Below, piece after piece: positions 30,491-53,521 of a stretch of DNA of 64,000 nucleotides. Under the pieces are notes generated by a model. It made no database searches. It saw only the letters and a list, made by a program, of their open reading frames with translations, and was not told the DNA's origin. Position 1 is the first letter of the stretch, and the number at the start of each line of letters is the position of its first letter. The stretch covers positions 14,597,051-14,661,050 of the forward strand of contig NC_041060.1 in assembly GCF_900634775.1 (NCBI RefSeq). The letters run 5' to 3'. This DNA is from Gouania willdenowi (Eukaryota). The position numbers and the translations under genes were made by a program.

Positions 30491-30595
30491 AGTTCAGGCC
30501 TATATACAATGTGTATCTCCTCCCACTGCTGCTTTGCAATGGACTCATGTTGCAAATAATGGAACAGTGAACACAATGTTGCTTGTTTGTCCACA

Positions 30596-30772
30596 GCTCA
30601 GTTCTGTAATCCATCCAACCTGAACCATGGTTATTTTGTTCCTGTGAAAGCAACAAATCAACATGGAGCAAATCTCACATATGCCTGTGAGGAAGGACAC
30701 AAGCCTGTAGCCAAGGGCTGGTGGACAAGAGTCACATGTCAGGGGGAAAGATGGTCTCCTGTGCCGTAGTGT
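30596..30772 (+). pseudogene. Decayed sushi/CCP exon (AQFCNPSNLNHGYFVPVKATNQHGANLTYACEEGHKPVAKGWWTRVTCQGERWSPVP-stop-C) with an in-frame TAG before the last Cys and no splice donor
   Basis: Paralogous to the intact exon 44833..45024, which ends ...ARCI g|gtaagt. Here the frame reads ccg TAG tgt and no GT donor follows. Confidence 0.6.
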
Positions 30773-31249
30773 ATCAATACTTAAAGATGGATAAATCTTT
30801 ATTGTCATTGCCTAATCATACAAAGTACAACATACAATGAAATTGGACCACATTCCCCCTCCATGCAAATCACATTTCATTCACACACAATAAATAAATA
30901 AATGGGATAAAAAGTGCAAAGAGGCAATTAATTGATCATTTTTCAGAATAAAAACAGTATGAATAATTAAATGATAAAACAGTTTAGTGTGGGTCTGTCA
31001 GGAGTAAGCAGTTTTTGTTCAGAAAGGTTATTGCGCTGTTTGTGTGTGATTTTAGTGTCTCCTGCCAGAGGGGTAACAACTCAAACACCTGATGTCCTGG
31101 GTGTTTACCGTCTCTTAAAACTCTGCTTGCCCTTTTGAGACAGTGAACCCTGTACGTGTGCTCCAGGGAGGGGAGAGGGTGGCCGATGATTTTCTGGGCA
31201 GTTTAATGACCCTTTGGAATGCCGTCAACTGTGCCATGGTGCAGCTGTT

Positions 31250-31812: not shown

Positions 31813-32758
31813 TGTCCAGTAATTTCCAGCTCTTCTGCAAGTCCAGCATCACTATCATCCTTTGTAGTGTTGCAGGACATGTAATGGGTGAGATGCTGGA
31901 CTTCCTGCCACACTCGCTGTGTGTTATTGTCTTTATAGTGTTCTTCTATTTTCTTTGTATAAGCTATAGCCATACCAAAAAAAACAGCCAAAAACATATT
32001 TGAGAGCTCCAGTATGTTATTTAAAAAAAAATTGTGATTTTTTTATTATCCCTTCACAGTAAGGTGGAGATATCAAAGGGGCGGGGTTTTTTTGATACAG
32101 AATTTCGAAAGACAAAAGTTAAATTGGTCACTATACTTTCTTTATGTACCATTAACCATGAAATCAAGTATTTCAAAATAAAAGGCTAATTCATACAATT
32201 TAGCTTGAAGGTATTTAGAAAACTTTATTACTGTCTTTGGTTTGAATAGACAAACAATTTTGAAGTAAGAAAACATTTACTACCTTAAACTGATGCAGTT
32301 GTACAAATAGAAAGTAATAATTAGTTTTCAAACAAGATTTATATGGATATAAGGATTTATATTTGTCTCATTGTTTTTATATTACCATGTGTTTTTATTG
32401 GGTCAAATTTGCACTGCTACATGTTTATATGTCGTTATATGTTTTTATGTACTATGCACTCTTGTGTTTTGTTGTGACTTGTATGTCTTTTATGCTCCCC
32501 ATATCTTTGCACTCTGAGTCACATATATTAGGGACAAATAAAGTTGGTGATTGATTAAAAAAGAGTATTAGACTAAAACTAAGTAGTATTTTATTCAGAA
32601 GACTATGACTAAAACTAATTCCAAATGTTACTGTAAAAAAATAACCTTACTGTCAGTGATCATAATGTAAAATTGGATGTTGGGAATAAAAATCCTCTTT
32701 TTTTTTTTTTTTCATTAGTTTGTTGTGGTTCAGTGTAACAACAGTCTTTGTCCTTAAG

Positions 32759-32939
32759 GTGAAAATGCACGCCTTCCCACCAACTGTTGCAAATGGAACA
32801 TACAGAAAAAACCTAAATGGCTGGTATGAGGTAAACAATGTGATTTCTATAACGTGCAACAAAGGATATGAACACACAGGCCAATACTCAACAGCCAAAT
32901 GTTTGGGAGGAGTGTGGTCTTCTTTGCCTTCATGTCAGC
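32759..32939 (+). CDS. Sushi/CCP exon, unit A copy, intact (VKMHAFPPTVANGTYRKNLNGWYEVNNVISITCNKGYEHTGQYSTAKCLGGVWSSLPSCQ); lies upstream of the copy-A signal-peptide exon, so it probably belongs to a more 5' remnant gene
   Basis: CCP consensus (Cys spacing, W...P.C); acceptor ccttaag; phase-1 donor c|gtaagc. Its B counterpart carries a 2-bp deletion. Confidence 0.5.
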
Positions 32940-33028
32940 GTAAGCTCCTCATTGCTTTTAAGTGTGAAGAAATCACTTTTCAGATACTCTTGGTTATCAC
33001 AGTGACTCTTCTTTTTTTTTTTTTACAG

Positions 33029-33204
33029 AGCTTATCCATTCATGCCTGGAGCCTCCTAAAATCCCACATACAGGAAAACGACAGTGTTTGCTGTGGACTC
33101 AAATGTGCAATATAAATGCCAGCGTGGATACACCGCAGTGGGAGGACACACCACAGCATCTGTCACCTGCAGGGATGGACAATGGACGAGACGCCCATCC
33201 TGCA
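33029..33204 (+). pseudogene. Sushi/CCP exon with an internal 1-nt frameshift (N-half CLEPPKIPHTGKRQ in one frame, C-half VFAVDSNVQYKCQRGYTAVGGHTTASVTCRDGQWTRRPSCS in another)
   Basis: The four CCP cysteines are split over two frames around 33085. The same lesion is present in the B copy 43573..43748, so it predates the duplication or is a shared assembly error. Confidence 0.5.
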
Positions 33205-34152
33205 GTAAGAGGACAATAACGTTCTAACTATTTGCCAGCTTTAGCTTTCTCATCATCAACTTTAAAAAAAATCACACAATTGTATTCATTTATTTATTTT
33301 AGAGAATCATACCGGTTATTGAGATTCATTCATACATATATACCTGCTGATCCTTTACAGCAGACATAGGCAACCCTGGATCTAATTTTTTTGCGGCCCC
33401 CAAAACAAATCCTCAAAAATTGTATTTCACGAAGTTGGAAGGAATATAAAGCCCAATATAATACACAAAATACAGTACATGAGATGTTTACTGTATGCAA
33501 GGGAATCATGACAAGATTTATTACCGACAACAAACGTGGGGGGTGAAAGTAACTAGTTTACTTTGAGTACTATTTAATTGAGCTATCTTTACTTGTACTT
33601 GAGTATTTTATGTATGACTTACTTGTACTTGACTGCAGTTTCAATCAAGTAACAGTACTTCTACTTGAGTAGGATATATACTGTAAGTACTCTTTACACC
33701 TTCACGTAACACTGAAGTATACAGGCACCTACTGCTCAGAGGAGCTCCAGAGCTGCTTTCGACCTCGCACTCTCCAGACAAGCCTTGGTGCCTGTATCTG
33801 ACTTTTTCATCATGTAATAATAAATGTTGTATTTATATCATGAAGATGTCAGTGGAGAATTCTTCAACCTCTTCACATCAACAAGGGAAATCCATTTATA
33901 ACAACCTCTGCCCATTGGTTCAGTGGTTAGTTTTGTTTTTTTAATTAGTGACTAATGCTTGTTTTACACAATTTACTGGCTTCTCAACATAGACATTCAA
34001 TAACAGCCATTTTGGGAAATGTTTGTTATTTCCCAACTTCTTATCTCTTTGTGGATATACCCAACAATAATTAACTGATCCACATCTGTCAGCAGCTCCA
34101 AACTCAGATTTATTCTGCATGGAGTTTATGTCCTGAAAACATGTGTGCGACG

Positions 34153-34204
34153 ATGACTCTGCGTTTTCTCCTGCTGGGTCTGTTTGTTCTGATGCTGCAG
34201 CATG
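34153..34204 (+). CDS. CFH/F13B-family gene copy A, exon 1: signal peptide MTLRFLLLGLFVLMLQH(G)
   Basis: ATG followed by a hydrophobic leader and a phase-1 donor g|gtaagg; identical to the B copy 44698..44749. Confidence 0.65.
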
Positions 34205-34337
34205 GTAAGGACCTTAAACCAAACTTTATCATGGAGAGAAAAAGCTGTTTAATGGATCTTTGTACTTCTGCGTTGTGTGTGTAGCAGTTTCAATTACCAG
34301 CAAATAATGATGACATGAGATTACTATTTCCTACCAG

Positions 34338-34403
34338 GAAGAACAGTTACTGAAAATGACGGATCCACAACTGGAACTGGTGAAAGTGTCACTCCATCTT
34401 CTG
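34338..34403 (+). CDS. Possible Ser/Thr/Gly-rich linker mini-exon of copy A (GRTVTENDGSTTGTGESVTPSS); boundaries uncertain
   Basis: Acceptor cctaccag is in phase with the signal-peptide exon. The only donor that keeps phase with the next CCP exon is the weak tctg|gtgttg; the strong gtgagt 14 nt downstream breaks phase. Confidence 0.3.
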
Positions 34404-34559
34404 GTGTTGGATGTGAGTTTCTTTTTTATTGTAGACATTAATAATGTCTGTAAAATGTTCCTTCAGGAGCAGATCACGTAGAATCCCAACAGAGGGCAGG
34501 ATTCAGTCAAACAGCCATAAATCTACCAACATGTGGGGTGCTGAATGTAAAACCTTGGT

Positions 34560-35420
34560 CACTGTTTCATAGCCGACATATTTTGAACATTTAATTCATT
34601 TTCTTCACGTTTAGCTAAATTTCTTCACATTTAGCTAATTTTCTTCACATTTAGCAAACTTTTCATTCATTTAGAGCAAATTCATGTAAAACAGCATGTT
34701 CTGTCATTGGTAAAAATGTGTAAACATGAAAAATAAATCTATATATAAATGTTAAATGTAAATCTAAATGTTAAATTGTCACCACTGTAAAGCTAAATGT
34801 TTAGAAATTATACAAAGATCACAAGGCCCCGCCCACACTCCACACACCACACCCTCCCAGGTCTTCTGCATCATCAGTATTTTCATCACTGGCAAAAGTG
34901 AGTTGACATACCGCATGCCGCCGGTACTCTCAGTGATTCCACGTCTGTTAAACTGTCTGAGGGCAGTTATCTACACATTCTGTCGGCTGATGTACAGCCC
35001 GTACACCTGTCATTACCGCTCTTTTGAGTTTGTCATTTTGGAGCAATGCCGCTCTTCCCCTCTCCTCACTCACTGCCGTGGTCTGTGGTGTGGGCGGGGC
35101 CTTGTGATTGACAGATGCTGACCTGCCCATTTTGCATAATTCCTAAACATTTAGCTTTACACTTGGTGGCTGATTTAACATTTAGATATAAATGTAATGT
35201 TTAGATTTATAATTAACATTTAGATTTAATATTTACATTTAGATTGTACACATTTTTAACAATGATATAGAAAATGTTCTTCTATATGAATTTCTGTCTC
35301 AAATGAAAGAAAAATGAGCTAAATGTGAGGAAAGTGAGCTAAATGTTCAAAATCAGTCAGCTATGAAAAAGTGGGTGTTTTTACATTCAGCACCCCATAC
35401 CAACATGCATGTCAGGAAGT
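34560..35420. repeat. Palindromic foldback element (about 860 bp) built from inverted blocks of aaatgtgaagaaa / tttcttcacattt subrepeats around a GC-rich core (ggccccgcccacac ... gtgtgggcggggcc)
   Basis: Left arm 34590-34790 and right arm 35100-35400 are reverse complements; the core carries a 117-codon ORF (34768..35121). A duplicated copy lies at 46960..47830. Confidence 0.6.
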
Positions 35421-35652
35421 CGTTTGATGACCTGAGTTCATCTTTAATCCCGTACAAACTTGTGTTTACACTCCACCAACAACAGCTGCTCACTGTGTTC
35501 GTGGGTCATTTTTTTTTACCAACATGTCACAAAACGTAAATATTGTACCAAAAACAATCGTCTATGATGATGAAAAGGAGACATGATTTTTCTCTATTCT
35601 CACAGAGTTTATTGCCATAATTAATTATGTTTTCCTTTTTTTTTTTTTACAG

Positions 35653-35814
35653 TGAACAGATGTGGTGAAAAGCCAATTATTACCAATGGTGTAATTGTGC
35701 AAACCGGGAGCGATTATTTGAAATACGCGTGCCCATTGTATTACAAGCTCGAGGGCTCGGACACTGTGAGGTGCTTGAATAACGGCTTGTGGACACCATT
35801 GCCATTCTGCAGAG
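35653..35814 (+). CDS. CFH-like copy A sushi/CCP exon (VNRCGEKPIITNGVIVQTGSDYLKYACPLYYKLEGSDTVRCLNNGLWTPLPFCRG)
   Basis: Acceptor ttttttttacag; CCP consensus; phase-1 donor g|gtacaa. Confidence 0.7.
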
Positions 35815-35888
35815 GTACAAACAAAAACAAACTGCTCTGATATCTTGCTTTTAAGTAAATATTAAATATTGATATATCTTTTGCACAG

Positions 35889-36056
35889 AGGCTTTCTGCC
35901 ATGTGAACACTGAGGATTACCCCTTCTTAATAAATATACAAGCAGAATTTTTGTTGGAAGGTGAAAAGAAGAGGTTCAAGTGTGTGGAAAAATTTGTATG
36001 GAGTTCTACGTATTCAGAGTTCGAGTGCATGAATGGGATAGTGAAGCACACAGGTT
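35889..36056 (+). CDS. CFH-like copy A sushi/CCP exon (EAFCHVNTEDYPFLINIQAEFLLEGEKKRFKCVEKFVWSSTYSEFECMNGIVKHTGC); either spliced at t|gtaagt or read through to a stop at 36085
   Basis: Acceptor ttttgcacag; a CCP with long inter-Cys spacing, as in C-terminal CFH CCPs; strong donor GTAAGT at 36057. Confidence 0.65.
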
Positions 36057-39000
36057 GTAAGTATTACTGTCTCTCATTACATTAATGAATTCTACCATCA
36101 CTCACATGGTCTTTCTCTGTGAACACATACTGATGTATAAGACACAGATGGATTTTTATAGTCATTTTTGTTTGATGGGTGTTTCATTGCAACAAGAGAA
36201 TGAGTTGGAGACCATAAGGAAATTAAATGAAGTTGTGACAGTTAGCAAAATATTAAACAAAGATTTAAAGAAACAAAACTTTAACTGGAGAATGTGTCCA
36301 AACACTGAGCATTAAGGGAGGCTTGAATTGGAATGGGACACACCTGAGGGGTATCCCAGAAAGTGGGTTAAGTTCAAACTCTGAGTTTGTTCGGGCTCAA
36401 ATGAGGGAAACTCTGAGTGTCCGATTCCTGAAAACAAGGTAAGTTTTACTCTGAGTTAGTCACCATGGTAACATCCTCTGTGAACTGAACCTGCTCGCTG
36501 GCAGGTTTTGTCTAAGAAACGTTGGGTTTCTACCTGGCTCCGCCCATCTAAACACGGCTTCTCTAGGAACACTTTAGTTTACCTTGACACTCTTCTCCGA
36601 CCACACATTTAGAACATCACACACCGCAGACGTGCGCTCACATTGTTACAAATGTTGTGCTGCTTTAGGTTTGTTTTGTTTTTGCAAACGGTAGTTTTCT
36701 TTACTACATTGTGGATGCAGAGCATATTTAGTTAAAGGTTCTAACGCCTATTATCGTCTTTTATAAAGTTCCCTGGATACAAACCTGTGCCAAATGTAAA
36801 GGTGAAATGTCAATTTAAAAAAATACACATTTAAGACTCAACATTTACATTGTTTCTGAAAAAAATCAAAGAGCAATATGGATGTTACAAGTGGATTAAT
36901 ACCTATTAACTGTAGAGTGTGTGTGGAAGTAGTGCAATGTTTTAGGAAGCACAGGAAATCATAGGGTCAGGGGTTCAAAATTCAACCTGGATTTTTTTTT
37001 TTTTTACAACGTCCTCTTGGGACGTCTAGAGTACATCTTTTTTGGACGTGCTGACGACTCATTTTACATGATGTAAAATGACGCGATGTCAAGCGGCCGT
37101 CACTGTCTGTAGAGCCGAGGCTGCAGCCCTCTCACTGTATCGGGAAGTTCCTCAACTTACTGGGGCCAAATGAAAGAGGAATACTCCTTGAATAACCCTT
37201 TTAAATTCTAATTATATTTTGAGTGAACTCATCCTTTAGTAACTCTGTAAGTTGATAATTTAAACTGTAAGTACAAGTGGAGCTGTCTTTGATAAGTGCT
37301 GTAAACGTACGGCCGGAGAAGAAGTGATCAGCCCTTTCAGCGCTGCTGCCGGCTCCGCAGACACAAGACTATTCATACTATTAATATTATTCCCTGGTCA
37401 CCGAAAAGCGCGACAATGTTTAAGCGGCTCATCACGGGCGATTTAAGCAACTATAGTCACTGAAGTTGCGTTCTATGTGAACGCACCTTTAGAACAGGCT
37501 TGTATTCCCCAAACACCTCCTTTTTTACCCATCTGGGTGAAATAAATATCTCTCTTCCAGCTGGTTGCCATGGTAGTTTGTGTTATCTTTGCTTTATTGA
37601 TGGTAGCTTTTAGGTTTACATACTCAGATTTGATTGACCCACTTCATACCAGCTGTAATAGAATCGGATAGACTCAGAATTTGTTGAACCTCCTTTCTGG
37701 AATACTCCTCAGGTGTCAAACATGAGGAAGCTAATCACTCACAACCTAAACACACTGACATCACTGGGAGGTGGAGACACCAGCAGGAATACCAGGGAAC
37801 ACAAAGACTCACAAGACTTAACAGAACGATCAAAGCAACTAGAAACCTAAACTACAAACAAATAAATAAACTAGGACTTACTGAAATAAACTCAGAAACC
37901 CACAGGGCTAAAAAACAAACCCTGTGTTGATCTAAAATATCTGATAGCTACACTTTGTCTGAAGGCTCCAGCTAACCTCTCACTGTTTTTTTGTTTGTTT
38001 ACAGGTTGTCGTAAAGCTCAGTTTTTAATTGTGAGTATTCCCACATTTCTTAAAACAAACACTAATGATCACAGCCGTACTTTTATAGAAAAAGTGGCAG
38101 ATCTACTTAATTCCTAAAGGCATCTCTATGATTATGGAACCAACTTCCTGTGATTTCTTTTAGGTTAAAGTTTATCTTACAACTTTATTAGGATAAGTGT
38201 AAAGGGTTTTGAAATTTGAAGTGTGTGTGCGCGCGTGTGTCAAGAGCATTGATCTCTTGTTCAATTCAACAATATAAACATGCCTTTAGCCGCATTGTGT
38301 GCTTCTATCTGTTTATCGCACAGGAAGCTGCACCCATAATCAGGAAGTATCAGCCTAATAATCAGACTTATGGGGCTCCTACACTCTATTATGTAATATT
38401 TTCATATTGTTAACTTTTACCTTCTGTTTTGTTTTTGTTTTGTTACAGAACATGTGCTAAGAAAGCATGATTTGACTGTGTTGTCAAATCTGAAAGGGGA
38501 GTACAGATATCTTCTTGGGATTGATGACCCCAGTATACACAGTGAAGCTGGCACAAACCAAAGACACAAGAAAATCTACCAAGGGACGTTTAGACTGAAA
38601 TGGTTTCATATCTAAGGGTTGTAAACAGAGTTTGCTGCTTGTCCACCAGCCTCTGATTAACTAGAAACTTTAAGACTAGTTTCAGGAATCAACTTTTCCA
38701 GTCAGGCTACAGCGACCCTTGTATTCTTTAATATATCTACATTTAGATTCCAGACAGGAGAAATGAGTGCTTCTGTTGCAACAATGTCAAAATTGAATAA
38801 AGTAACTACTCCATTACCTTAATATCGCATTCATGTATTTATTTCCTTTAAGCACCTGTAACTCCAAAAGTCTCGGTTCACACCATACGACACATGTAGA
38901 AAAACCAGCTTGTTTTCCTGAGGTTGATCAGGAATTAGTAATTAAAGCAATACGTTTCTAGGGTATTGTGTCACATAGAGCAGGGGTTCTCAAATGGGGG

Positions 39001-42000
39001 TATGTGCACCCCTAGGGGTACGCGATGGCCTACAGGGGGTACTTGAGAGAGTGGAAAATTAACAAATAAGTGTCAGTGTTGGTCCCACTCCAGGGGTGAT
39101 ATGACCCAAAATAATAAAAACTACAGAAATAAATCTTTTCAGGAGATACTCAAAAGGTGTTTTTCAACCTTGTGGAGGGGTCGCTTAAAATTTCAGAAAA
39201 ATTTAAATAGATTTTTGAAATGTTTTAATTATTATTAAAAATATTTTTTATTTAAACACACAGTTTTCATCAATTGTATGTCTATATTTTCACTTTGCAA
39301 AACATGAATCTAGTTCAACTAAAATGCAGTAAAAAATAAAATATATATGAGCTCAAACATGATCAAAAACTCATAAATAAAAAAAAAAAGTCTTTGTGGT
39401 TGCTGGAAATTCTTGATATCAAAATAGGGTCACGATCCAAAACAGGTTGGGATCCACTGCAGTAAACACTGTTTATTTCCACTTATTTACAAAATGAGAT
39501 TATTTAAAATGTGTGTTATCACTCATTCATTCCATCATTATTCTCTATAGTTGTTTTTAATTAGTTTTCTAAGCAAAATGATGTCGTCGAACAAAGGAGG
39601 TACTTAGATTCAGAAAAAAGAGAAAGAGGGTACTTGAGCCAAAAAAGTGTGATTGTAGGGGACATGACATGTATGGATGGGCTGCGTTCTATGATGCAGT
39701 AGTAGAGGAGGTCATCAAGAGTCAACTCTGTACCATTTTGACACTTTCACATCCTTAAAGAGTAACTAAACCCTAAAACCACTTTTTTCTGCTGAATACA
39801 ACCGTATTTGGGTATAAAGTAGTGCTGTTGACTGATTCTGGTCCAACTCTATAAACATGTAGTTGTAAAATGTCAGAGTGACTGCCCTCTATGGGTTGAA
39901 ACCTGGCTATTACAATAGATTTTTGCTCATGGCTGAGAACTTGATCATGTGGCGTTTTGGGACCATCTTGTGTCACAAACAAGCATTGTTAGCCCCGCCT
40001 CTTTTATAAAAACTAGCACTTGTGGGCTCTACAGTCTGTGGTGAGCAGGTAGTGAATAAGTGATGACATATTTTAAAGAATCTAATTTTGTAAATAAGTG
40101 GAATAGAACAGTATTTAGTGCCTCCTGAATAGATCTATTTCTATAGTTTGTATCATTTCCTGTCATTCCCACCTGTAGTGGGACCAAGTCTGACCCTTGT
40201 ATTTTCAGTTCATGTTCTAATCAAGATCATTTTGTGTATTTTGTTGTTTGTCTGTTCTTTTTATTATTCAGTATATTGTTTTTGTCATTTCTGTGTTGTT
40301 GGTGTTATTTAAAGTTTTCTTTCTCTTTGTGTGTGTTTCTGGTGCCGTTTGGTTGTTTCTTATGTCGTTGTGTACGTTTCTCTGTTATTTTTGTGCATTT
40401 TGTCTGTTCTTTGTATTATTCAGTATATTTTTTCTCATATTGTGTTTTTGTTGTCGTTCTGTGAGTTGCTGGTAATATTTTGTGAGATAATAATCTTTCT
40501 ATAAAAGCAAGGAACGTCTCCGTGTGTGTGTAGCGAATATCTCTCCGACGCAATGCGAGTTCGACCTGAAACTTAGTCGACGGCTTCCAAATACCCCGAG
40601 TTTGTGTATTTGTTATTTTGGAGTAATTTGGTCATTTCTAAATGTTTATTTTAATTTTATTTCACTTCTGGACAGCCCCGAAATGAAACCTATTCAACTT
40701 TTGACCGCAGGGTTTGAGGGGGCGCTAGCGCACCATCTATAGCTATTTCACGGCACAGCTCCACACCCGAGCAAGAGTCACGTGTGCGGCCACTCCTCCT
40801 CCACTTCCTCCTGTGATATGTTATCGTTAGCTTCTCAAACACGGAGCTCTCTGAATAGATCATTTGAAACCGTCAGCCACTGGTGAGTCTTTTGCAGACA
40901 CGTTTCCCATTGTTTAAACCACATAACTGTCCGTGTAATTGCTCAATAACGCGCTGTTTCACTAGAGTCGGTATTGAACTCAACCCGTTCAATACTCCAT
41001 CTGGAAAACTGCAGATTCTCGGTGGTGCCGTGCATGGAAGCGAAGCTCTGACCACTCTTTTTGAAGGTTATGATTTTTGTTTTGTTTTTTTTAAAAAAAA
41101 AAAAAAAGACAGCCGAATTGTAGATAATACTTTAATTTACTTACTCAGTCATGTAGTTTGGAGTTCTACATTCTGTTTTGCGCAGTTTTGTTGTTTTTCT
41201 GATTGGCGCTACAATCGCTATGGAGTTTGGATATCAGCGTCTCAAACATGTCACGGAGCACACACACACACGGTATTTGTTTATTTATTTATAATCAAAA
41301 TATACTAAATGTGTAAAATAAAACAAAAAAACTAAACAATGTTTACTTAAAGTTCACACAATTACAACAGAAATGCATAAAAATACACAAAATGACAAGA
41401 GAATCACACTACAATGGCAACAAAAAACTATAATTATACAAAAACACAACAGATAGATACAAAAATAGACACAATGACTCCAAAAAACATACATTGCAGA
41501 AAAATACACCAAACAAAAAAAATGTAAAAGTGAGTGGAAAAAAAAAACAAACATTTATCATGTTCATGTCTCATAGAATTAAACCAGGGAAATCATACAC
41601 ACTATTTTACGTTGCACCCACAAAGAAACCCCTTTATAACACTACAGAGTACAGAGTATGTAGACCTCTTTGTACATCCAACCTTCAAACACATACTCAT
41701 TTGGCCATAATTGACAACTACTTAAGCCCCCACTATATGAATACATACTTTGGACGGGCACTGTACTAGCAACCAAAAACAATCATACAAAAAATGCATT
41801 GTTTCCCAAACTTTTTTTGCTCATGTACCCCTATCATCAAAATAATAATTTTTAATTAAAATAGACATTATAAAACCCCCTTTTTTCTCTCTCTCAAGTA
41901 CCCCGTCGTGCCATCACGTACCCCCATTTGAGAAACACGGGTTTTTTCAAGAACTTTTAGAAAACTGGTCCATGGAAACACCAGGAGAATTTAGCACTCA

Positions 42001-42329
42001 GATAAAATTTGTAAATAAAATCTATTAAACCTAGAGCAGTTTAAAGTTGAATATTTCTAAAAACTGGAAAATGTTAACCGTAAAACTAACAGAAAAAAGC
42101 TCAAACTACCAAAATTTTGTGTCTTTTTACGTTGTGGCATCATCTTCAAAGGTCTTAAAAGTAACGAGCTCATTTTTAAAATGTAAGGAGTAAAAAGTAC
42201 AAATGTTTGTTTAAAAAAGTAAGGAGTAAAAGTAAAAAGACTGCCACTAAAACTAAATAAAAATTTGCTGTCAAAATGAACACTGCAACAGAAACAGGGA
42301 TGAAGAACGCCAGTGATAACATTGGACAT

Positions 42330-42460
42330 AATAGTAAATCATTCAAAGTTTTACTCATTAGTGAGTTTCTCCATAAATATGAAATACATCTGAAAATTTG
42401 AGAATTAATGAAGTTTATTGTTGCCTTACCAGAGTGAGTCCTGAAATGCATTTCCAGACT
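42330..42460 (-). pseudogene. Unit A pseudo-copy of ZBTB41 exon 8 carrying a nonsense change (GGA to TGA, i.e. EFKG becomes EFK-stop)
   Basis: B has gaatttaaaggaaag at about 55745; A has gaatttaaatgaaag at about 42458. The reported ORF 42176..42451 begins just after this stop. Confidence 0.65.
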
Positions 42461-43305
42461 GGACTTTCATTTAAATTCTTTCTTGCAAACTTCACATTGA
42501 TGTATGGCAGTTTTATACCTGAGTACAGAAGAATAAAAATATACACTAAGCACAAAACCAGGTACATTTAACCAGTGCATGCTAATACTGTAAAAAAGAA
42601 AAAATATCTATTCTGCAAGTCCAGCATCACTATCATCCTTTGTAGTGTTTCAGGACATGTAATGGGTGAGATGCTGGACTTCCTGCCACACTCGCTGTGT
42701 GATTTTTTTTTTTTTTTTTTTTTATATATATATACCTTCACGGTAAGATGGAGATAGCAAAGAGGCAGGGTTTATTTTGATACATAATTTCAAAAGGCAA
42801 AAGTTAAATTGGTCACTACACTTTATTTATTTACCATTAACCATGAAATCAAGTATTTCAAAATAAAAGGCTAATTTATACAATTTAGCTTGATGGTATT
42901 TAGAAAACTTTATTACTGTCTTTGGTTTGAATAGACAGACTGTTTTGAAGTAAGAAAACATTTACTACCTTAAACTGATGCAGTTGTACAAATAGAAAGT
43001 AATAATTAGTTTTCAAACAAGATTTATATGGATATAAGGATTTATATTTGTCTTGTTGTTTTTATATTACCATGTGCTTTTATTGGGTCAAATTGCACTG
43101 CTACATGTTTATATGTCGTTATATGTTTTTATGTACTATGCACTCTTGTGTTTTGTTGTGACTTGTATGTCTTTTATGCTCCCCATATCTTTGCACTCTG
43201 AGTCACATATATTGGGGACAAATAAAGTTGGTGATTGATTGATTAAAAAAGAGTATTAGACTAAAACTTAAGTTGTATTTTATTCATGCAGTCTTTGTCC
43301 TTTAG

Positions 43306-43484
43306 GTGAAAATGCACGCCTCCCCACCAACTGTTGCAAATGGAACATACAGAAAAAACCTAAATGGCTGGTATGAGGAAAACAATGTGATTTCTATAAC
43401 GTGCAACAAAGGATATGAACACAGGCCAATACTCAACAGCCAAATGTTTGGGAGGAGTGTGGTCTTCTTTGCCTTCATGTCAGC
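43306..43484 (+). pseudogene. Unit B copy of sushi exon 32759..32939, with a 2-bp deletion (gaacacacagg to gaacacagg) that frameshifts it
   Basis: Direct comparison with the A copy; the ORF reads ...KGYEHRPILNSQMFGRSVVFFAFMSA. Confidence 0.6.
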
Positions 43485-43572
43485 GTAAGCTCCTCATTGC
43501 TTTTAAGTGTGAAGAAATCACTTTTCAGATACTCTTGGTTATCACAGTGACTCTTCTTTTTTTTTTTTACAG

Positions 43573-43748
43573 AGCTTATCCATTCATGCCTGGAGCCTCC
43601 TAAAATCCCACATACAGGAAAACGACAGTGTTTGCTGTGGACTCAAATGTGCAATATAAATGCCAGCGTGGATACACTGCAGTGGGAGGACACACCACAG
43701 CATCTGTCACCTGCAGGGATGGACAATGGATGAGACGCCCATCCTGCA
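43573..43748 (+). pseudogene. Unit B copy of the frameshifted sushi exon
   Basis: Identical frame break to 33029..33204. Confidence 0.5.
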
Positions 43749-44697
43749 GTAAGAGGACAATAACGTTCTAACTATTTGCCAGCTTTAGCTTTCTCATCAT
43801 CAACTTTAAAAAAAATCACACAATTGTATTCATTTATTTATTTTAGAGAATCATACCTGTTATTGAGATTCATTCATACATATATATACCTGCTGATCCT
43901 TTACAGCAGACATAGGCAACCCTGGATCTAATTTTGTGCGGCCCCCAAAACAAATCCTCAAAAATTGTATTTCACGAAGTTGGAAGGAATATAAAGCCCA
44001 ATATAATACACAAAATACAGTACATGAGATGTTTACTGTATGCAAGGGAATCATGACGAGATTTATTACCGACAACAAACGTGGGGGGTGAAAGTAACTA
44101 GTTTACTTTGAGTACTATTTAATTGAGCTATCTTTACTTGTACTTGAGTATTTTATGTATGACTTACTTGTACTTGACTGCAATTTCAATCAAGTAACAG
44201 TACTTCTACTTGAGTAGGATATATACTGTAAGTACTCTTTACACCTTCACGTATCACTGAAGTATATAGGCACCTACTGCTCAGAGGAGCTCCAGAGCTG
44301 CTTTCGACCTCGCACTCTCCAGACAAGCCTTGGTGCCTGTATCTGACTTTTTCATCATGTAATAATAAATGTTGTATTTATATCATGAAGATGTCAGTGG
44401 AGAATTCTTCAACCTCTTCACATCAACAAGGAAAATCCATTTATAACAACCTCTGCCCATTGGTTCAGTGGTTAGTTTTGTTTTTTTAATTAGTGACTAA
44501 TGCTTGTTTTACACAATTTACTGGCTTCTCAACATAGACATTCAATAACAGCCATTTTGGGAAATGTTTGTTATTTCCCAACTTCTTATCTCTTTGTGGA
44601 TATACCCAACAATAATTAACTGATCCACATCTGTCAGCAGCTCCAAACTCAGATTTATTCTGCATGGAGTTTATGTCCTGAAAACATGTGTGCGACG

Positions 44698-44749
44698 ATG
44701 ACTCTGCGTTTTCTCCTGCTGGGTCTGTTTGTTCTGATGCTGCAGCATG
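44698..44749 (+). CDS. CFH/F13B-family gene copy B, exon 1: signal peptide MTLRFLLLGLFVLMLQH(G)
   Basis: As copy A; phase-1 donor. Confidence 0.7.
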
Positions 44750-44832
44750 GTAAGGACCCTAAACCAAACTTTATCATGGAGAGAAACAGCTTTTTAATGG
44801 ATCTTTGTACTTCTGCGTTGTGTGTGTAGCAG

Positions 44833-45024
44833 TTGGATCAACAGTGCCATCTTGTACAGCTCCCACACTGGAGAACGGGTATTTCTACCCAAATCAGTCT
44901 CTTTATTCCAATAATCAAGTGTTGACTTATGCGTGTGATATTGGACATAAGCCAGTAGTGGAGGGATGGTGGGCTACCATCACCTGTCAGAGCGACGGAT
45001 GGTCAGATGTAGCACGGTGCATAG
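44833..45024 (+). CDS. Copy B sushi/CCP exon 2 (GSTVPSCTAPTLENGYFYPNQSLYSNNQVLTYACDIGHKPVVEGWWATITCQSDGWSDVARCI)
   Basis: Acceptor tgtgtgtagcag in phase with the signal-peptide exon; 63-codon CCP; phase-1 donor g|gtaagt. Absent from copy A. Confidence 0.75.
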
Positions 45025-46141
45025 GTAAGTGATGGATAAAATTCTAGAGAAGGGGACATCAACATGTTGCCTGCGGGCACCAGGTAGCCCATCTAAAATC
45101 TAAATTACTTTCCAGGATTCAAACTCACAAAGATAAATACAGATGTAAGATGTAGTTAGTATTTAGTAGAGTTATATACTGCTGCATGTGATAAAGTTTC
45201 AGTAAATTACCATGTGTATACGTTTATTTTCACTGAAACTTTGTGGCCAACGTTTTTAAGTGTTGCAAATTTAGTGTATGGGTATATACATGTATATATA
45301 CAGACCCTTTCCAAAAAATTAGAGTATCATGGAAAATGTGTTTCATTTCCATAATTCCAATCAAAAAGTTCAACTTTCATAGATTATATATTCAGGGCCC
45401 ACTGATTAAATGATTTCAAGTATTTATTTGTTTATTTTTACATAATTTGGGCTTCCCACTCGTAAAACCCACGAAAAATGGAGTTCAAAAAACAGAACAG
45501 AACCCAAGCTGCTTGAGGTCCAGTGTGAAATATCCAATCAGTCATGATTTGGGGTGCAATGTTCTGTTGTGTTCCTCATCCGTCTTCTTCCAAACCCTTG
45601 GACCTTGATTCCAGAATGAAAGGCACACTTTTCTTTCATCAGAAAAGAGGACCTTGAACCACTGGCAAACAGTCCAGTCCTTCTTCTCTTCTTTTTTTTA
45701 AGTCAATGGTGATTTCTTCACAATATTCAAATTTTTTTAAATTAATGTGAAACCGTGAACATTTAGTATTTAAGATACTTATTTATGGTTTTTAAACCGG
45801 TAGCCCTTTGGACTATTGAGTACTTCATACTCAATAGTACAGTACAGTTTCAGAAAGGTTGGTGACCCCTGGGTGGTTGAAAATAATGTTGTCAGCGGCT
45901 GATTTTTTTAAAGTCCTGTTCGTACTGAAATCTGGCCTCTATGGACTATCAGACTTTTTCTTCTTATTCAGAAGCTACTAAAAATACTTTGTTGCTGTCT
46001 TTTATCTAGTCCTGAACCTTTTTGGTGCTTTTGCCGAGTGCTTAAGATAAGATAATACTTTATTAGTCCCACAATGAGGAAAAATTCAAAGAAAGAGATA
46101 CAATGTTTTTTTGTTTTGTTTTTTTTTTCTTTCCCTACTCA

Positions 46142-46291
46142 GATGAAAAGGCCTGCGTTAAACCTTCCATCCCCAACTCAGAAAACATTGACATGGAAGG
46201 AAATACACTCGAATTTACATGTAAAACAGGATACGAACCACAGAGTTACAATTGTGTCGATGGTTCATGGTCTTCTATGCCTGTTTGTGCG
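46142..46291 (+). CDS. Copy B sushi/CCP exon 3 (DEKACVKPSIPNSENIDMEGNTLEFTCKTGYEPQSYNCVDGSWSSMPVCA)
   Basis: Acceptor tccctactcag, donor a|gtaagt; CCP consensus. Absent from copy A. Confidence 0.75.
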
Positions 46292-46375
46292 AGTAAGTCA
46301 ATCAGAATGACTCCAGCACATTGTGAAGCACATCATCTACTTGTTCCAATTCGAAATGATCTGCTTCTTTCACAG

Positions 46376-46567
46376 GTAACGTCCGTGCATGCGGTGAGCC
46401 TCCACAGGTCCCTCATGCAGTTGTCATTTATCAGCACTACCGGGAGGAGTTTGCTGACGGTACAATGTTGCTGTATGAATGTGAGGAAGGATACACAACA
46501 GAGAAATACGGCACAAAAGCGTCAGTCACTTGTCAGAAAGGGACCTGGACTGCAGGCCCAACATGTC
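46376..46567 (+). CDS. Copy B sushi/CCP exon 4 (SNVRACGEPPQVPHAVVIYQHYREEFADGTMLLYECEEGYTTEKYGTKASVTCQKGTWTAGPTC)
   Basis: Acceptor tctttcacag, donor c|gtgagt; 63-codon CCP. Absent from copy A. Confidence 0.75.
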
Positions 46568-46730
46568 GTGAGTAGCACACTTTAGCACACTTTTCAATGT
46601 GCTGATCCTCAGTGTTGATGCTCAGTTTATATTAAATGATTGTGTGAAATTACGTATACTTGTGATATCAAAGGCAAAAGTTTCAATTACCAGCAAATAA
46701 TGATGACATGAGATTACTATTTCCTACCAG

Positions 46731-46796
46731 GAAGAACAGTTACTGAAAATGACGGATCCACAACTGGAACTGGTGAAAGTGTCACTCCGTCTTCTG
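46731..46796 (+). CDS. Possible Ser/Thr/Gly-rich linker mini-exon, copy B (RRTVTENDGSTTGTGESVTPSS)
   Basis: Same reasoning as 34338..34403. Confidence 0.3.
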
Positions 46797-46959
46797 GTGT
46801 TGGATGTGAGTTTCTTTTTTATTGTAGACATTAATAATGTCTGTAAAATGCCATTTTGGTGTTCCTTCAGGAGCAGATCACGTAGAATCCCAACAGAGGG
46901 CAGGATTCAGTCAAACAGCCATAAATCTACCAACATGTGGGGTGCTGAATGTAAAACCT

Positions 46960-47830
46960 TGGTCACTGTTTCAAAGCCGACATATTTTGAACATTTAATT
47001 CATTTTCTTCACGTTTAGCTAAATTTCTTCACATTTAGCTAATTTTCTTCACATTTAGCAAACTTTTCATTCATTTAGAGCAAATTCATGTAAAACAGCA
47101 TGTTCTGTCATTGGTAAAAATGTGTAAACATGAAAAATAAATCTATATATAAATGTTAAATGTAAATCTAAATGTTAAATTGTCACCAGTGCAAAGCTAA
47201 ACGTTTAGAAATTATACAAAGATCACGAGGCCCCGCCCACACTCCACACACCACACCCTCCCAGGTCTTCTGCATCATCAGTATTTTCATCACTGGCAAA
47301 AGTGAGTTGACATACAGCATGCCGCCGGTACTCTCAGTGATTCCACGTCTGTTAAACTGTCTGAGGGCAGTTATCTACACATTCTCTCGGCTGGTGTACA
47401 GCCCGTACACCTGTCATTACCGCTCTTTTGAGTTTGTCATTTTGGAGCAATGCCGCTCTTCCCCTCTCCTCACTCACTGCCATGGTCTGTGGTGTGGGCA
47501 GGGCCTTGTGATTGACAGATGCTGACCTGCCCATTTTGCATAACTCCTAAACATTTAGCTTTACACTTGGTGGCTGATTTAACATTTAGATATAAATGTA
47601 ATGTTTAGATTTATAATTAACATTTAGATTTAATATTTACATTTAGATTGTACACATTTTTAACAATGATATAGAAAATGTTCTTCTATATGAATTTCTG
47701 TCTCAAATGTGAGGAAAGTGAGCTAAATGTTCAAAATCAGTCAGCTATGAAAAAGTGGGTGTTTTTACATTCAGCACCCCATACCAACATGTATGTCAGG
47801 AAGTCATTTGATGACCTGAGTTCATCTTTA
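46960..47830. repeat. Second copy (unit B) of the palindromic foldback element
   Basis: ORF 47172..47525 is paralogous to 34768..35121; same inverted subrepeat arms. Confidence 0.6.
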
Positions 47831-48034
47831 ATCCCGTACAAACTTGTGTTTACACTCCACCAACAACAGCTGCTCACTGTGTTCGTGGGTCATTTTTTTT
47901 TACCAACATGTCACAAAACGTAAATGTTGTACCAAAAACAATCGTCTATGATGATGAAAAGGAGACATGATTTTTCTCTATTCTCACAGAGTTTATTGCC
48001 ATAATTAATTGTTTTCCTTTTTTTTTTTTTACAG

Positions 48035-48196
48035 TGAACAGATGTGGTGAAAAGCCATTTATTACCAATGCTGAAATTGTGCAAACCGGGAGCGATTATT
48101 TGAAATACGCGTGCCCATTGTATTACAAGCTCGAGGGCCCGGACACTGTGAGGTGCTTGAATAACGGCTTGTGGACACCATTGCCATTCTGCAGAG
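48035..48196 (+). CDS. Copy B sushi/CCP exon (VNRCGEKPFITNAEIVQTGSDYLKYACPLYYKLEGPDTVRCLNNGLWTPLPFCRG)
   Basis: Paralogue of 35653..35814, with 4 nt differences. Confidence 0.7.
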
Positions 48197-48270
48197 GTAC
48201 AAACAAAAACAAACTGCTCTGATATCTTGCTTTAAAGTAAATATTAAATATTGATGTATCTTTTGCACAG

Positions 48271-48438
48271 AGGCTTTCTGCCATGTGAACACTGAGGATT
48301 ACCCCTTCTTAATAAATATACAAGCAGAATTTTTGTTGGAAGGTGAAAAGAAGAGGTTCAAGTGTGTGGAAAAATGGGGATGGTTTTCTACGTATTCAGA
48401 GTTCGAGTGCATGGATGGGATAGTGAAGCACACAGATT
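48271..48438 (+). CDS. Copy B sushi/CCP exon (EAFCHVNTEDYPFLINIQAEFLLEGEKKRFKCVEKWGWFSTYSEFECMDGIVKHTDC)
   Basis: Paralogue of 35889..36056, with 7 nt differences; donor t|gtaagt, or read-through to a stop at 48467. Confidence 0.65.
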
Positions 48439-51400
48439 GTAAGTATTACTGTCTCTCATTACATTAATGAATTCTAACATCACTCACATGGTCTTTCTCT
48501 GTGAACACATACTGATGTATAAGACACAGATGGATTTTTATAGTCATTTTTGTTTGATGGGTGTTTCATTGCAACAAGAGAATGGGTTGGAGACCATAAG
48601 GAAATTAAATGAAGTTGTGACAGTTAGCAAAATATAAAACAAAGATTTAAAGAAACAAAACTTTAACTGGAGAATGTGTCCAAACTCTGAGCATTAAGGG
48701 AGGCTTGAATTGGAATGGGACACACCTGAGGGGTATCACAGAAAGTGGGTTAAGTTCAAACTCTGAGTTTGTTCGGGCTCAAATGAGGGGAAACTCTGAG
48801 TGTCCGATTCCCGAAAACAAGGTAAGTTTTACTCTGAGTTAGTCACCATGGTAACATCCTCTGTGAACTGAACCTGCTCGCTGGCAGGTTTTGTCTAAGA
48901 AACGTTGGGTTTCTACCTGGCTCCGCCCATCTAAACACCGCTTCTCTAGGAACACTTTAGTTTACCTTGACACTCATCTCCGACCACACATTTGGAACAT
49001 CACACACTGCAGACATGCGCTCACATTGTTACAAATGTTGTGCTGCTTTAGGTTTGTTTTGTTTTTGCAAACGGTAGTTTTCTTTACTACATTGTGGATG
49101 CAGAGCATATTTAGTTAAAGGTTCTAACACCTATTATCGTCTTTTATAAAGTTCCCTGGATACAAACCTGTGCCAAATGTAAAGGTGAAATGTCAATTTA
49201 AAAAAATACACATTTAAGACTGAACATTTACATTGTTTCTGAAAAAAATCAAAGAGCAATATGAATGTTACAAGTGGATTAATACCTATTAACTGTAGAG
49301 TGTGTGTGGAAGTAGTGCAATGTTTTAGGAAGCACAGAAAATCATAGGGTCAGGGGTTCAAAATTCAACCTGGATCATCTTTTTTACAACGTCCTCTTGG
49401 GACGTCTAGAGTACATCTTTTTTGGACGTGCTGACGACTCATTTTACATGATGTAAAATGACGCGATGTCAAGCGGCCGTCACTGTCTGTAGAGCCGAGG
49501 CTGCAGCCCTCTCACTGTATCGGGAAGTTCCTCAACTTACTGGGGCCAAATGAAAGAGGAATACTCCTTGAATAACCCTTTTAAATTCTGATTATATTTT
49601 GAGTGAACTCACCCTTTAGTAACTCTGTAAGTTGATCATTTAAACTGTAAGTACAAGTGGAGCTGTCTTTGATAAGTGCTGTAAACGTACGGCTGGAGAA
49701 GAAGTGATCAGCCCTTTCAGCGCTGCTGCCGGCTCCGCAGACACAAGACTATTCATACTATTAATATTATTCCCTGGTCACCGAAAAGCGCGACAATGTT
49801 TAAGCGGCTCATCACGGGCGATTTAAGCAACTATAGTCACTGAAGTTGCGTTTTATGTGAACGCACCTTTAGAGCAGGCTCATATTCCCCAAACACCTCC
49901 TTTTTTACCCATCTGGGTGAAATAAATATCTCTCTTCCAGCTGGTTGCCATGGTAGTTTGTGTTATTTTTGCTTTATTGATGGTAGCTTTTAGGTTTACA
50001 TACTCAGATTTGATTGACCCACTTCATACCAGCTGTAATAGAATCGGATAGACTCAGAATTTGTTGAACCTCCTTTCTGGAATACTCCTCAGGTGTCAAA
50101 CATGAGGGAGCTAATGACTCACAACCTAAACACACTGACATCACTGGGAGGTGGAGACACCAGCAGGAATACCAGGGAACACAGACTCACAAGACTTAAC
50201 ACAACGATCAAAACAACTAGAAACCTAAACTACAAACAAATAAATAAACTAGGACTTACTGCAATAAACTCAGAAACCCACAGGGCTAAAAAACAAACCC
50301 TATGTTGATCTAAAATATCTGATAGCTACACTTTGTCTGAAGGCTCCAGCTAACCTCTCACTGTTTTTCTGTTTGTTTACAGGTTGTACTAAAGCTACGT
50401 TTTTAATTGTGAGTATTCCCACATTTCTTAAAACAAACACTAATGATCACAGCCGTACTTTTATAGAAAAAGTGGCAGATCTTAATTCCTAAAGGCATCT
50501 CTATGATTATGGAACCAACTTCCTGTGATTTCTTTTAGGTTAAAGCAAATCTTACAACTTTATTAGGATAAGTGTAAAGGGTTTTGAAATTTAAAGTGTG
50601 TGTGCGCGTGTGTGTCAAGAGCATTGATCTCATGTTCAATTCAACAATATAAACATGCCTTTAGCCGCATTGTGTGCTTCTATCTGTTTATCGCACAGGA
50701 AGCTGCACCCATAATCAGGAAGTATCAGCCTAATAATCAGACTTATGGGGCTCCTACACTCTATTATGTAATATTTTCATATTGTTAACTTTTACCTTCT
50801 GTTTTGTTTTTTTTGTTACAGAACAAATGCGAAGAAAGCACGATTTGACTGTGTTGTCAAATCTGAAAGGGGAGTACAGATATCTTTTTGGGATTGATGA
50901 CCCCAGTATACACAGTGAAGCTGGCACAAACCAAAGACACAAGAAAATCTACCAAACGACGTTTAGACTGAAATGGTTTCATATCTAAGGGTCGTAAACA
51001 GAGTTTGCTGCTTGTCCACCAGCCTCTGATTAACTAAAAACTTTAAGACTAGTTTCAGGAATCAACTTTTCCAGTCAGGCTACAGCGACCCTTGTATTCT
51101 TTAATATATCTACATTTAGATTCCAGACAGGAGAAATGAGTGCTTCTGTTGCAACAATGTCAAAATTGAATAAAGAAACTACTCCATTACCTTAATATCA
51201 CATTCATGTATTTATTTCCTTTAAGCACCTGTAACTCCAAATGTCTCGGTTCACACCATACGACACATGTAGAAAAACCAGCTTGTTTTCCTGAGGTTGA
51301 TCAGGAATTAGTAATTAAAGCAATACGTTTCTAGGGTATTGTCATGTAGAGCAGGGGTTCTCAAATGGGGGTATGTGCACCCCTAGGGGTACGCGATGGC

Positions 51401-51755
51401 CTACAGGGGGTACTTGAGAGAGTGGAAAATTAACAAATAAGTGTCAGTGTTGGTCCCACTCCAGGGGTGATATGACCCAAAATTATAAAAACTATAGAAA
51501 TAAATCAATTCAGGAGATACTCAAAAAACCACAAGGGTTTTTGAGTATCCCATGATACTCCCATTGAGACCCCATGTGGAGTCGCTTAAAATAAAATAGA
51601 TTTTTGAAATGTTTTATTATTAAAATATTTTTTAATAAAACACAGTTTCCATCAATTGTATGTCTATATTTTCACTTTGCAAAACATAAATCTCGTTCAA
51701 CTAAAATGCAGTAAAAAAAATAAATAGGAGCTCAAACATGATCAAAAACTCATTC

Positions 51756-51921
51756 TTTTTTTTTTTTTTTTTTGGGCTCTAGTGGCCTTTATATGACAGT
51801 TGCTTGACAGGAAAGGGATCAGAGAGAGCAGGGAATGACACGCAGCAAAGGGTCCCAGGCCGGGAATCGAACCTGGACCGGCTGCAGGTGAGGAACTACA
51901 GCCTCTGTACATGGGGCGGGC
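51756..51921 (-). mobile_element. tRNA-derived SINE, unit-B-specific insertion with a 12-bp target-site duplication aaaactcattct and a poly-A tail (poly-T on +)
   Basis: A has ...caaaaactcataaat... uninterrupted at 39375. B has aaaactcattc + T18 + SINE body (ggttcgattcccggcctgggaccctttgctgcgtgtcattccc on the minus strand) + aaaactcattct. Confidence 0.7.
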
Positions 51922-52914: not shown

Positions 52915-53340
52915 ATGGATACATTAAACGTATCCATAGACTGCCACTTTATACATACGCAGCGCCCCTCATTGGCCAGTTTAGATCATGTTATAGGTGC
53001 ACCACGTGACTTAACGTTCCGTCAGTTGTATTTTAGCTCAAATTTATTTTCAGCTACCCCGCTAACTCTTTTATTTTAGCCCTATCCGTAACTCTAATCC
53101 TAACCCTAAAATGTTTATTTTTGTCGTATATGTATTTTTAATGGTGGAGTTTGCCATGTTAAGCATGTTAAAATGAAAAAAGGTATGTCAAAAGTGGGAT
53201 TCGAACCCACATTAGCGGAAGGAAGTGGACCATTCGGAAATCCTGAAACGATGAAAACACAGGCACAATTATGTAGAAAAGGTCTGGAAATGTAGCCATA
53301 GTCCAGGGGGCTGTGGCTACATTTAACGTATCTCTAGACA
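52915..53340 (-). repeat. tRNA-derived SINE-like element, uninterrupted copy of the family at 2221..3150
   Basis: Perfect T-arm GTGGGTTCGAATCCCAC on the minus strand; terminal acatttaacgtatc repeats. Confidence 0.5.
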
Positions 53341-53521
53341 CTTTTTGAATTTCCCTCCTTGTGGCAAGTCAGGAGAAAGCAGGAGTTTTGTTATTCTTTA
53401 AGCATACTGGGATTGAATCTTGTGTTTAACCCTATTATTTGGCTAAAGCATGTGCTGTGAAAGGTTCCTCTTAGAATATGGCGGGCCTTCATCACACATC
53501 TCGGCCACAGACCACACGTTC

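Follow-up and report, generated by a model that had tools for sequence, protein, structure and literature searches.

The stretch of DNA analysed here (the window) comprises 64,000 nucleotides of the clingfish Gouania willdenowi (RefSeq assembly GCF_900634775.1, contig NC_041060.1, positions 14,597,051 to 14,661,050, forward strand). The window spans the clingfish cfh cluster, and it carries two neighbouring complement factor H-like genes, which we call copies A and B. A preliminary description, made from the letters alone, had singled out two adjacent exons that encode complement control protein (CCP) modules and that differ between the copies by amino-acid-changing substitutions only. Both exon pairs are phase-1, continue one open frame and are bordered by AG and GT in A and in B. 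Their assignment to the complement regulator family held up, as we found a Pfam Sushi match and a 99% match of the exons to Gouania 'complement factor H-like' in the protein search.

Two factor H-like genes, one of them truncated

Copy B is intact. It corresponds to the annotated 352-amino-acid 'complement factor H-like' protein with five CCP modules (P0001, XP_028329268), and a nine-exon model of the gene translates to P0001 exactly. The exons encode, in order, the signal peptide, CCP1, CCP2, CCP3, a Ser/Thr/Gly linker, CCP4, CCP5 and two tiny tail exons (Table 1). CCP1-3 of B aligned end to end with modules 6-8 of factor H (FH; 2UWN/2IC4, E about 4e-13), and CCP1-2 aligned with CCP1-2 of a protein of the factor H-related (FHR) type, FHR-1 (3ZD2, 1e-11); the match of the N-terminal modules to FH1-4 was weaker (2WII, 7e-7).

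Copy A consists of the signal-peptide, linker, CCP4, CCP5 and two tail exons; CCP1-3 are gone. Relative to B, 1,848 bp (44835-46682 in B) are missing from A, with a junction five bases into the CCP1 exon and a 4-bp AGTT microhomology at that junction. We rejected an insertion in B as the alternative to a deletion in A because the break falls 5 nt within the CCP1 exon, because of the AGTT microhomology, and because the orthologues all have CCP1-3. The preliminary description had envisaged two regulators subfunctionalising after duplication. That picture had been drawn without sight of the 1.85-kb deletion by which A lost three CCP exons, and of an upstream acceptor that A retains and whose use would create a premature stop.

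What remains of A is open. All 168 codons of the retained coding sequence can be read, all splice dinucleotides are intact, and a check of the coding sequence left in A and of its splice sites for disabling lesions, made as a test for a pseudogene, found none. Intron 1 of A (34205-34337) has two acceptors 53 nt apart, AG 34283-34284 followed by AG 34336-34337. Use of the second, the linker acceptor, gives an in-frame 168-amino-acid protein, and only this route is productive; judged from its sequence, copy A may be translated. At the other end of the gene, A stops at the terminal Cys (TAA, 38458), as do many orthologues, and B reads GAA (50831) and is extended by EESTI. A stop codon has therefore been gained or lost since the duplication.

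Table 1. Coordinates in the window of the exons of copies A and B, the duplicated units and the remnants of an older paralogue (gene X)
Feature	Position	Strand	Remarks
Gene A signal-peptide exon	34141..34204	+	MCATMTLRFLLLGLFVLMLQH, phase 1; identical to B 44686-44749
Gene A five-base stub of the deleted CCP1 exon	34285..34289	+	native acceptor AG 34283-34284; junction at 34289/34290
Gene A linker exon	34338..34412	+	Ser/Thr/Gly-rich; carries the lone synonymous difference from B, 34396
Gene A CCP4 exon	35653..35814	+	factor H CCP19-like; differs from B by 4 non-synonymous changes
Gene A CCP5 exon	35889..36056	+	factor H CCP20-like, atypical CCP without Trp; 7 non-synonymous bases in 5 codons
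Gene A tail exon 1	38005..38030	+	C-CRKAQFLI; R to T and Q to T versus B, each a dinucleotide change
Gene A tail exon 2	38449..38460	+	NMC, stop TAA; in B NKC, then GAA (Glu) and five extra codons
Gene B signal-peptide exon	44686..44749	+	exon model equals XP_028329268
Gene B CCP1 exon	44830..45024	+	no counterpart in A; exon model equals P0001
Gene B CCP2 exon	46143..46292	+	no counterpart in A; exon model equals P0001
Gene B CCP3 exon	46376..46567	+	no counterpart in A; exon model equals P0001
Gene B linker exon	46731..46805	+	exon model equals P0001
Gene B CCP4 exon	48035..48196	+	factor H CCP19-like; exon model equals P0001
Gene B CCP5 exon	48271..48438	+	factor H CCP20-like; exon model equals P0001
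Gene B tail exon 1	50383..50408	+	C-CTKATFLI; exon model equals P0001
Gene B tail exon 2	50822..50848	+	NKCEESTI, stop; exon model equals P0001
Tandem duplication unit A	31830..42608	+	self-BLAST, block alignments; collinear with 42608-55871
Tandem duplication unit B	42608..55871	+	self-BLAST, block alignments; abuts unit A directly
Gene X CCP1 exon	30569..30778	+	older decayed paralogue; interrupted at 30767 by a stop codon, just ahead of the final Cys
Gene X CCP2 and CCP3, unit A	32744..33221	+	CCP2 with first Cys lost, CCP3 with frameshift; unit-B copies 43306-43765

Replacement differences in the recognition pair and tail

The CCP4 exons of A and B differ at positions 35676, 35689, 35692 and 35757 (I to F, G to A, V to E and S to P), and the CCP5 exons at positions 35994, 35995, 35997, 36002, 36003, 36032 and 36054, which turn FVWSS into WGWFS and exchange N for D and G for D. 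All of these are non-synonymous, just as had been reported, and the signal-peptide exon is indeed identical in the two copies. The absence of synonymous differences is a property of these two exons: across the shared coding sequence there is one, at 34396 (CCA to CCG) in the linker exon. The two terminal exons add seven non-synonymous bases (R to T, Q to T, M to K, and TAA versus GAA). The 504 shared coding bases contain 18 differences in 13 codons, in addition to the stop-versus-Glu pair TAA/GAA, so that 12 replaced codons and a stop shift stand against a single synonymous change. Five codons carry double changes (TTT to TGG, AGT to TTT, CGT to ACT, CAG to ACG and ATG to AAA). The Nei-Gojobori method applied to the shared coding sequence gave Nd 16.5 and Sd 1.5, corresponding to pN 0.042-0.045, pS 0.011-0.014 and an omega of about 3-4. 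dN was about 2.7 times the intron divergence.

The contrast with the introns needed the longer alignment. Locally, the 2-4% first quoted for the flanking introns is not lower than the 3.3% of the exons, and A and B differ at 2 positions of the 74-bp intron that separates the two exons. Over the full alignment, non-coding divergence is 1.62% (71/4393) in the collinear block and 2.0% in the whole duplication, and the contrast does emerge: exon divergence was 3.75% (19/507; p = 0.0018 against the block), and the replacement rate exceeded the local intron rate at p = 0.0002-0.002, both on raw counts. When exon-sized non-coding segments were resampled, divergence as high as that of all shared exons had P = 1e-4 if segments came from the block and 0.04 if they came from all blocks; CCP4 and CCP5 alone gave 0.003 and 0.11. 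Counted as events, non-synonymous changes gave borderline to non-significant values (P = 0.005-0.10) against the neutral expectation. The kind of change differed as well. Adjacent-base or double-hit events numbered 5 in the exons versus 0.7-1.0 expected (P = 0.0007-0.003), which is 5-7 times the non-coding rate, and transitions to transversions stood at 5:14 in exons versus 45:26 in non-coding DNA (p = 0.004).

To ask what these exons encode, we combined domain, sequence and fold comparisons, the last using an AlphaFold model of the copy-A product and Foldseek against the Protein Data Bank (PDB). The CCP4 exon matched Pfam Sushi (PF00084) at 25.5-33 bits (cut-off 20.7), and its C..C..C..W..C pattern is visible. 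The CCP5 exon (residues 57-109) gave no significant match to Pfam Sushi, the conserved Trp being absent, and we accept it as an atypical CCP solely because it aligns with FH CCP20 from end to end and resembles it in fold. Residues 3-113 of the CCP4-5 query aligned to 2G7I, 2XQW, 4ONT, 3RJ3, 4MUC and 3ZD1 (E = 7e-5 to 4e-4). In the PDB the two modules together matched end to end only FH CCP19-20, FHR-1 CCP4-5, FHR-2 CCP3-4 and factor XIII-B. The model had a predicted local distance difference test score of 96-97 over residues 50-168 and of about 86 in the block with the FVWSS loop. Its best fold matches were FH19-20 and FHR-1 4-5 (probability 1.00, template modelling score about 0.56 on the target), and the top matches included FH19-20 in complex with C3d and sialic acid as well as complexes with Borrelia OspE and with FhbA. 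By sequence and predicted fold, the two exons are the counterpart of human FH CCP19-20, the C3d/sialic-acid recognition pair, which agrees with their earlier portrayal as ligand-facing modules; by analogy with the human pair, the clingfish pair may recognise ligands of this kind.

The replacements are not spread evenly over the protein. Sites with a replacement vary more among 39 fish orthologues than the other sites do (entropy 2.50 versus 1.76 bits, p = 0.012), the 27 near-invariant columns are all untouched (P = 0.05), and none of the 12 replacements falls in the signal peptide or linker, whose 47 codons are the least constrained (P = 0.02). Most replaced residues lie in loops or turns of the AlphaFold model. 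An approximate mapping on human FH places I55-V60 at about P1114-D1119, FVWSS near Y1205-S1209, N149 at about D1220 and G156 at about T1227; a further replacement maps roughly to N1147. We take D1119 of human FH to be a C3d-contact residue that is mutated in atypical haemolytic uraemic syndrome. Three replacements and the stop shift sit in the fish-specific Cys-loop tail. Since B keeps the conserved W..WF motif, the FVWS of A is derived; at I55, G59 and tail Q162, in turn, it is A that has the common residue and B the unusual one (F, A and T). This suggests that changes occurred on both copies.

Setting of the duplicated genes

The tandemly duplicated unit is 11-13 kb long, as delimited by self-BLAST and block alignments. 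Units A and B are 93-99% identical in blocks and differ by several kb-scale indels, and the window contains no N bases or gaps. Divergence between the units is uneven, with a block range of 1.0% to 7.2%: the blocks at 32038-32597, 39198-39374 and 40053-40498 diverge by 4.7-7.2%, and the promoter and 5' block (32742-34289) by 1.0%. This unevenness may stem from repeats, from the quality of the alignment or from earlier conversion between A and B. In the 1 kb upstream of the signal-peptide exon the two copies share 99% identity.

Upstream of each copy lie remnants of gene X, which in the window occupy 30394-30778, 32744-33221 and 43306-43765. The lesions in gene-X CCP2 and CCP3 are common to both units and are therefore older than the duplication. 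The public models P0002, P0004 and P0067 fuse gene-X remnants to copy A. We considered these models as the real product of copy A and rejected them, because they bypass or read through the stop at 30767, the lost first Cys and the shared frameshift. A NAGNAG acceptor is found just upstream of the start codon at about 34093/34096 (equivalent to about 44638/44641). It accounts for the single residue by which NCBI isoforms X1 and X2 differ, and the equivalent acceptor is where the Ensembl model of B begins. These features hint, indirectly, that the decayed gene-X exons now serve as exons of the 5' untranslated region of both copies and that locus A is transcribed.

The cfh cluster is bounded on one side by B3GALT2 (10785-12062, minus strand; Pfam B3GALT2_N and Galactosyl_T) and on the other by a BTB-zinc-finger, ZBTB41-like gene (53.5-62.5 kb, minus strand), flanks that place it in the CFH/F13B neighbourhood. 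According to a teleost survey (PMC7768046), cfha genes are linked to b3galt2 and cfhb genes lie near zbtb41, and species-specific tandem duplication of cfh-family genes occurs across teleosts. The distal end of the duplication unit extends into the 3' part of the ZBTB41-like gene. Of a zinc-finger-bearing open reading frame (ORF) of that gene (55324-55842, minus strand), unit A contains a partial copy with a frameshift (42060-42580, minus strand), and the last zinc-finger exon (53522-54133, minus strand) lies in a 1.4-kb segment exclusive to unit B. B3GALT2 is an intact single-exon gene between inverted 0.83-kb repeats (3534-4360 and 12731-13513, 87% identity), which are probably two copies of one transposable element. 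A 218-amino-acid ORF at 25517-26173 (minus strand) has no Pfam match and resembles a transposon-derived recombinase fragment by eye only.

Interpretation and comparison with known systems

The reading that we favour begins with an ancestor that would have been a five-module factor-H-related gene, encoding a signal peptide, three CCPs of the FH6-8 or FHR-1 N-terminal type, a linker rich in Ser and Thr, a recognition pair resembling CCP19-20 and a short tail looped by a disulfide. A recent tandem duplication would have produced A and B; if fish mutation rates are as assumed, the neutral divergence of about 1.6% would correspond to an age of roughly 2-4 million years. Copy A would then have shed CCP1-3 through the microhomology-mediated 1,848-bp deletion while keeping a spliceable ORF, and the recognition pair and tail would since have gained, on both copies, the 12 replacements and the stop shift alongside one synonymous change. 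The proposed cause is selection for altered binding specificity of this surface- and C3-fragment-recognition module. We put the probability that the recognition pair and tail diverged after duplication under selection for altered binding, with A also losing its N-terminal modules, at roughly 0.45. The structures of the genes, the deletion, the number and placement of the substitutions and the homology to FH19-20 were read directly from the sequences; the excess of replacements suggests, without establishing it, selection over a combination of mutation clusters and chance.

Several results, both in the statistics and in the state of copy A, weigh against this reading. About 75-79% of sites are non-synonymous, so that the probability of finding all 11 differences in CCP4 and CCP5 non-synonymous is 0.055-0.096, which is not significant, and we rejected a dN/dS test built on these two exons only. 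The diversifying selection proposed in the preliminary description gains from an excess that spans the shared coding sequence, but the test of non-synonymous versus synonymous changes over the full coding sequence was weak and not formally significant (Fisher p = 0.04-0.22). Significance against intron divergence depends on counting clustered substitutions as independent, as p moves from 0.002 to 0.03-0.2 when they are merged: merging within 1, 3 and 5 bp gave p = 0.03, 0.08 and 0.2, and at 5 bp, with 10 exon versus 62 non-coding events, the excess was gone. Venkat, Hahn and Thornton reportedly found in 2018 that multinucleotide mutations mimic positive selection. Among 404-bp windows across the duplication, 13% are at least as divergent as the one holding the two exons. 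The orthologues used to polarise the changes are only 35-45% identical, which makes the polarisation weak; outside the locus, the protein search yielded no relative above about 57% protein identity. As for copy A, the minimal 168-amino-acid product was found in no protein collection searched, and the annotated models for A are longest-ORF fusions with decayed upstream exons. The retained CCP1 acceptor lies 80 nt past the signal-peptide donor, and its use would yield a 28-residue product, MCATMTLRFLLLGLFVLMLQHAVSITSK*, ending in a premature stop. An intact 507 bp is also expected by chance at this age (P of no indel = 0.35-0.6).

Because A has lost three CCP exons and keeps the acceptor that leads to a premature stop, the pair may consist of one intact gene and a truncated derivative or young pseudogene. 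On one such reading, which we consider unlikely though a serious contender, copy A became a pseudogene after the deletion and has drifted neutrally, and a few multinucleotide mutations, a 3:1 neutral expectation and chance made the pattern. The value of 0.06-0.10 for 11 of 11 non-synonymous differences and the weakness of the event-level tests (p up to 0.2) fit such decay, as do the premature stop predicted from the deletion and the retained upstream acceptor, the placement on A of the clearest derived cluster (loss of the conserved W..WF), and the fact that freedom from indels and stops in 507 bp is unsurprising. However, a pseudogene paired with a constrained partner should diverge by less than the two-lineage neutral 1.6%, and the exons reach 3.75%. 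Neutral decay of A also sits poorly with the elevated frequency of adjacent-base events in exons relative to non-coding DNA, with an exon spectrum that is transversion-rich and unlike the background, and with changes that spare both the near-invariant columns and the least constrained codons of the signal peptide and linker. I55F, G59A and Q162T, moreover, look derived on the intact copy B.

We consider it improbable that the differences arose by ectopic micro-conversion, in which short tracts from a diverged factor-H-family paralogue elsewhere would have been copied into exons of A or B. If only exons were similar enough for such exchange, clustered and mostly replacement differences limited to coding sequence would follow, and the clustered, exon-restricted changes TTTGTA..AGT to TGGGGA..TTT, CGT..CAG to ACT..ACG and ATG.TAA to AAA.GAA have this appearance; the tracts relevant to a donor are TGGGGATGGTTTTC, TTTGTATGGAGTTC, ACTAAAGCTACG and CGTAAAGCTCAG. 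For the human CFH/CFHR cluster, gene conversion has been well described, and converted alleles are discussed in PMC6052053 and PMC7959842. A donor was sought inside the window and none was found: tblastn recovered only the two CCP4-5 copies, and variant-specific 28-33-mers matched only A and B. The protein search found no other Gouania protein with this C-terminus. The isolated single-base replacements at 35676, 35757, 36032 and 36054 are not tract-like. We also judged it unlikely that selection against homogenising A/B conversion left the exons as 'islands' of divergence, because pS in the same exons (0.011-0.014) is not above the intron value of 0.016.

False duplications are a known problem of long-read vertebrate assemblies, but nothing in the window points to one, and it is very improbable that the copies are diverged haplotypes or a mis-joined repeat with allelic differences or consensus errors: the units abut in unbroken sequence with no N bases, they differ by kb-scale indels that include the 1,848-bp deletion and the 1.4-kb segment with an exon of the neighbouring gene, their 1-7% divergence is far above ordinary heterozygosity, and consensus errors would not gather in exons or spare conserved columns.

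If divergence by selection is correct, the locus would be a very young and cleanly resolved case of factor-H duplicate divergence, at about 1.6% neutral divergence, in which the recognition module changes first and one copy sheds its N-terminal modules, possibly yielding an FHR-like competitor independently of mammals. The 12 residues would then form a tractable set for studying how C3-fragment and glycan recognition is tuned in fish. If it is not, the pair is an ordinary young duplicate with one copy decaying. A further step, which we regard as doubtful, is that A is a functional, natural FH19-20-only mini-protein with retuned loops (FVWSS, V60 and the tail), which would act as a competitor or decoy against B or against pathogen factor-H-binding proteins and would have arisen independently of the mammalian FHRs.

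The closest analogue is the pair of human FH and FHR-1, which, like clingfish A and B, are segmental duplicates in the same syntenic cluster. Two exchanges, S1191L and V1197A, distinguish the human recognition pairs; they switch the binding of sialic acid and determine how strong the 'deregulation' of FH is (PMC7959842). In both systems the recognition pair is near-identical between the duplicates and has amino-acid changes only, and the clingfish modules align end to end with the human ones and share their fold. The clingfish duplication differs in being independent, much younger (about 1.6% divergence), lineage-specific within teleosts and known from sequence alone. It also has 12 replacements in place of two, and they lie elsewhere in the module and in the Cys-loop tail.

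Other teleost cfh and cfh-like expansions (the cfha/cfhb clusters and zebrafish cfhl1-4) arose, like the clingfish pair, by tandem duplication, and the window has both B3GALT2 and the ZBTB41-like gene. The survey of these expansions (PMC7768046) deals with copy number and phylogeny and, in the part consulted, describes neither a two-module derivative nor replacement-only divergence of very young duplicates. In rodent CFH, CCP20 is reported to have the most codons under positive selection, as a preprint summarises (bioRxiv 10.64898/2026.07.10.737716). Selection on mammalian CFH CCP20, in connection with FH-binding pathogen proteins such as Borrelia OspE, concerns the same module that carries the clingfish signal, and this recognition module is the one hijacked by pathogens in mammals; unlike the mammalian case, the clingfish evidence is one pairwise comparison with small counts.

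The predicted product of A is essentially a secreted CCP19-20-like pair and in this resembles the recombinant FH19-20 fragment, an experimental competitor of factor H; copy A would differ in being a natural version, putatively expressed. To our knowledge, natural human FHRs contain four or more CCPs, among them modules for dimerisation at the N-terminus. The modules that carry the N-terminal dimerisation motif in FHR-1, FHR-2 and FHR-5 are absent from copy A, and a natural two-module derivative confined to the FH19-20 pair might, if A is expressed, be new.

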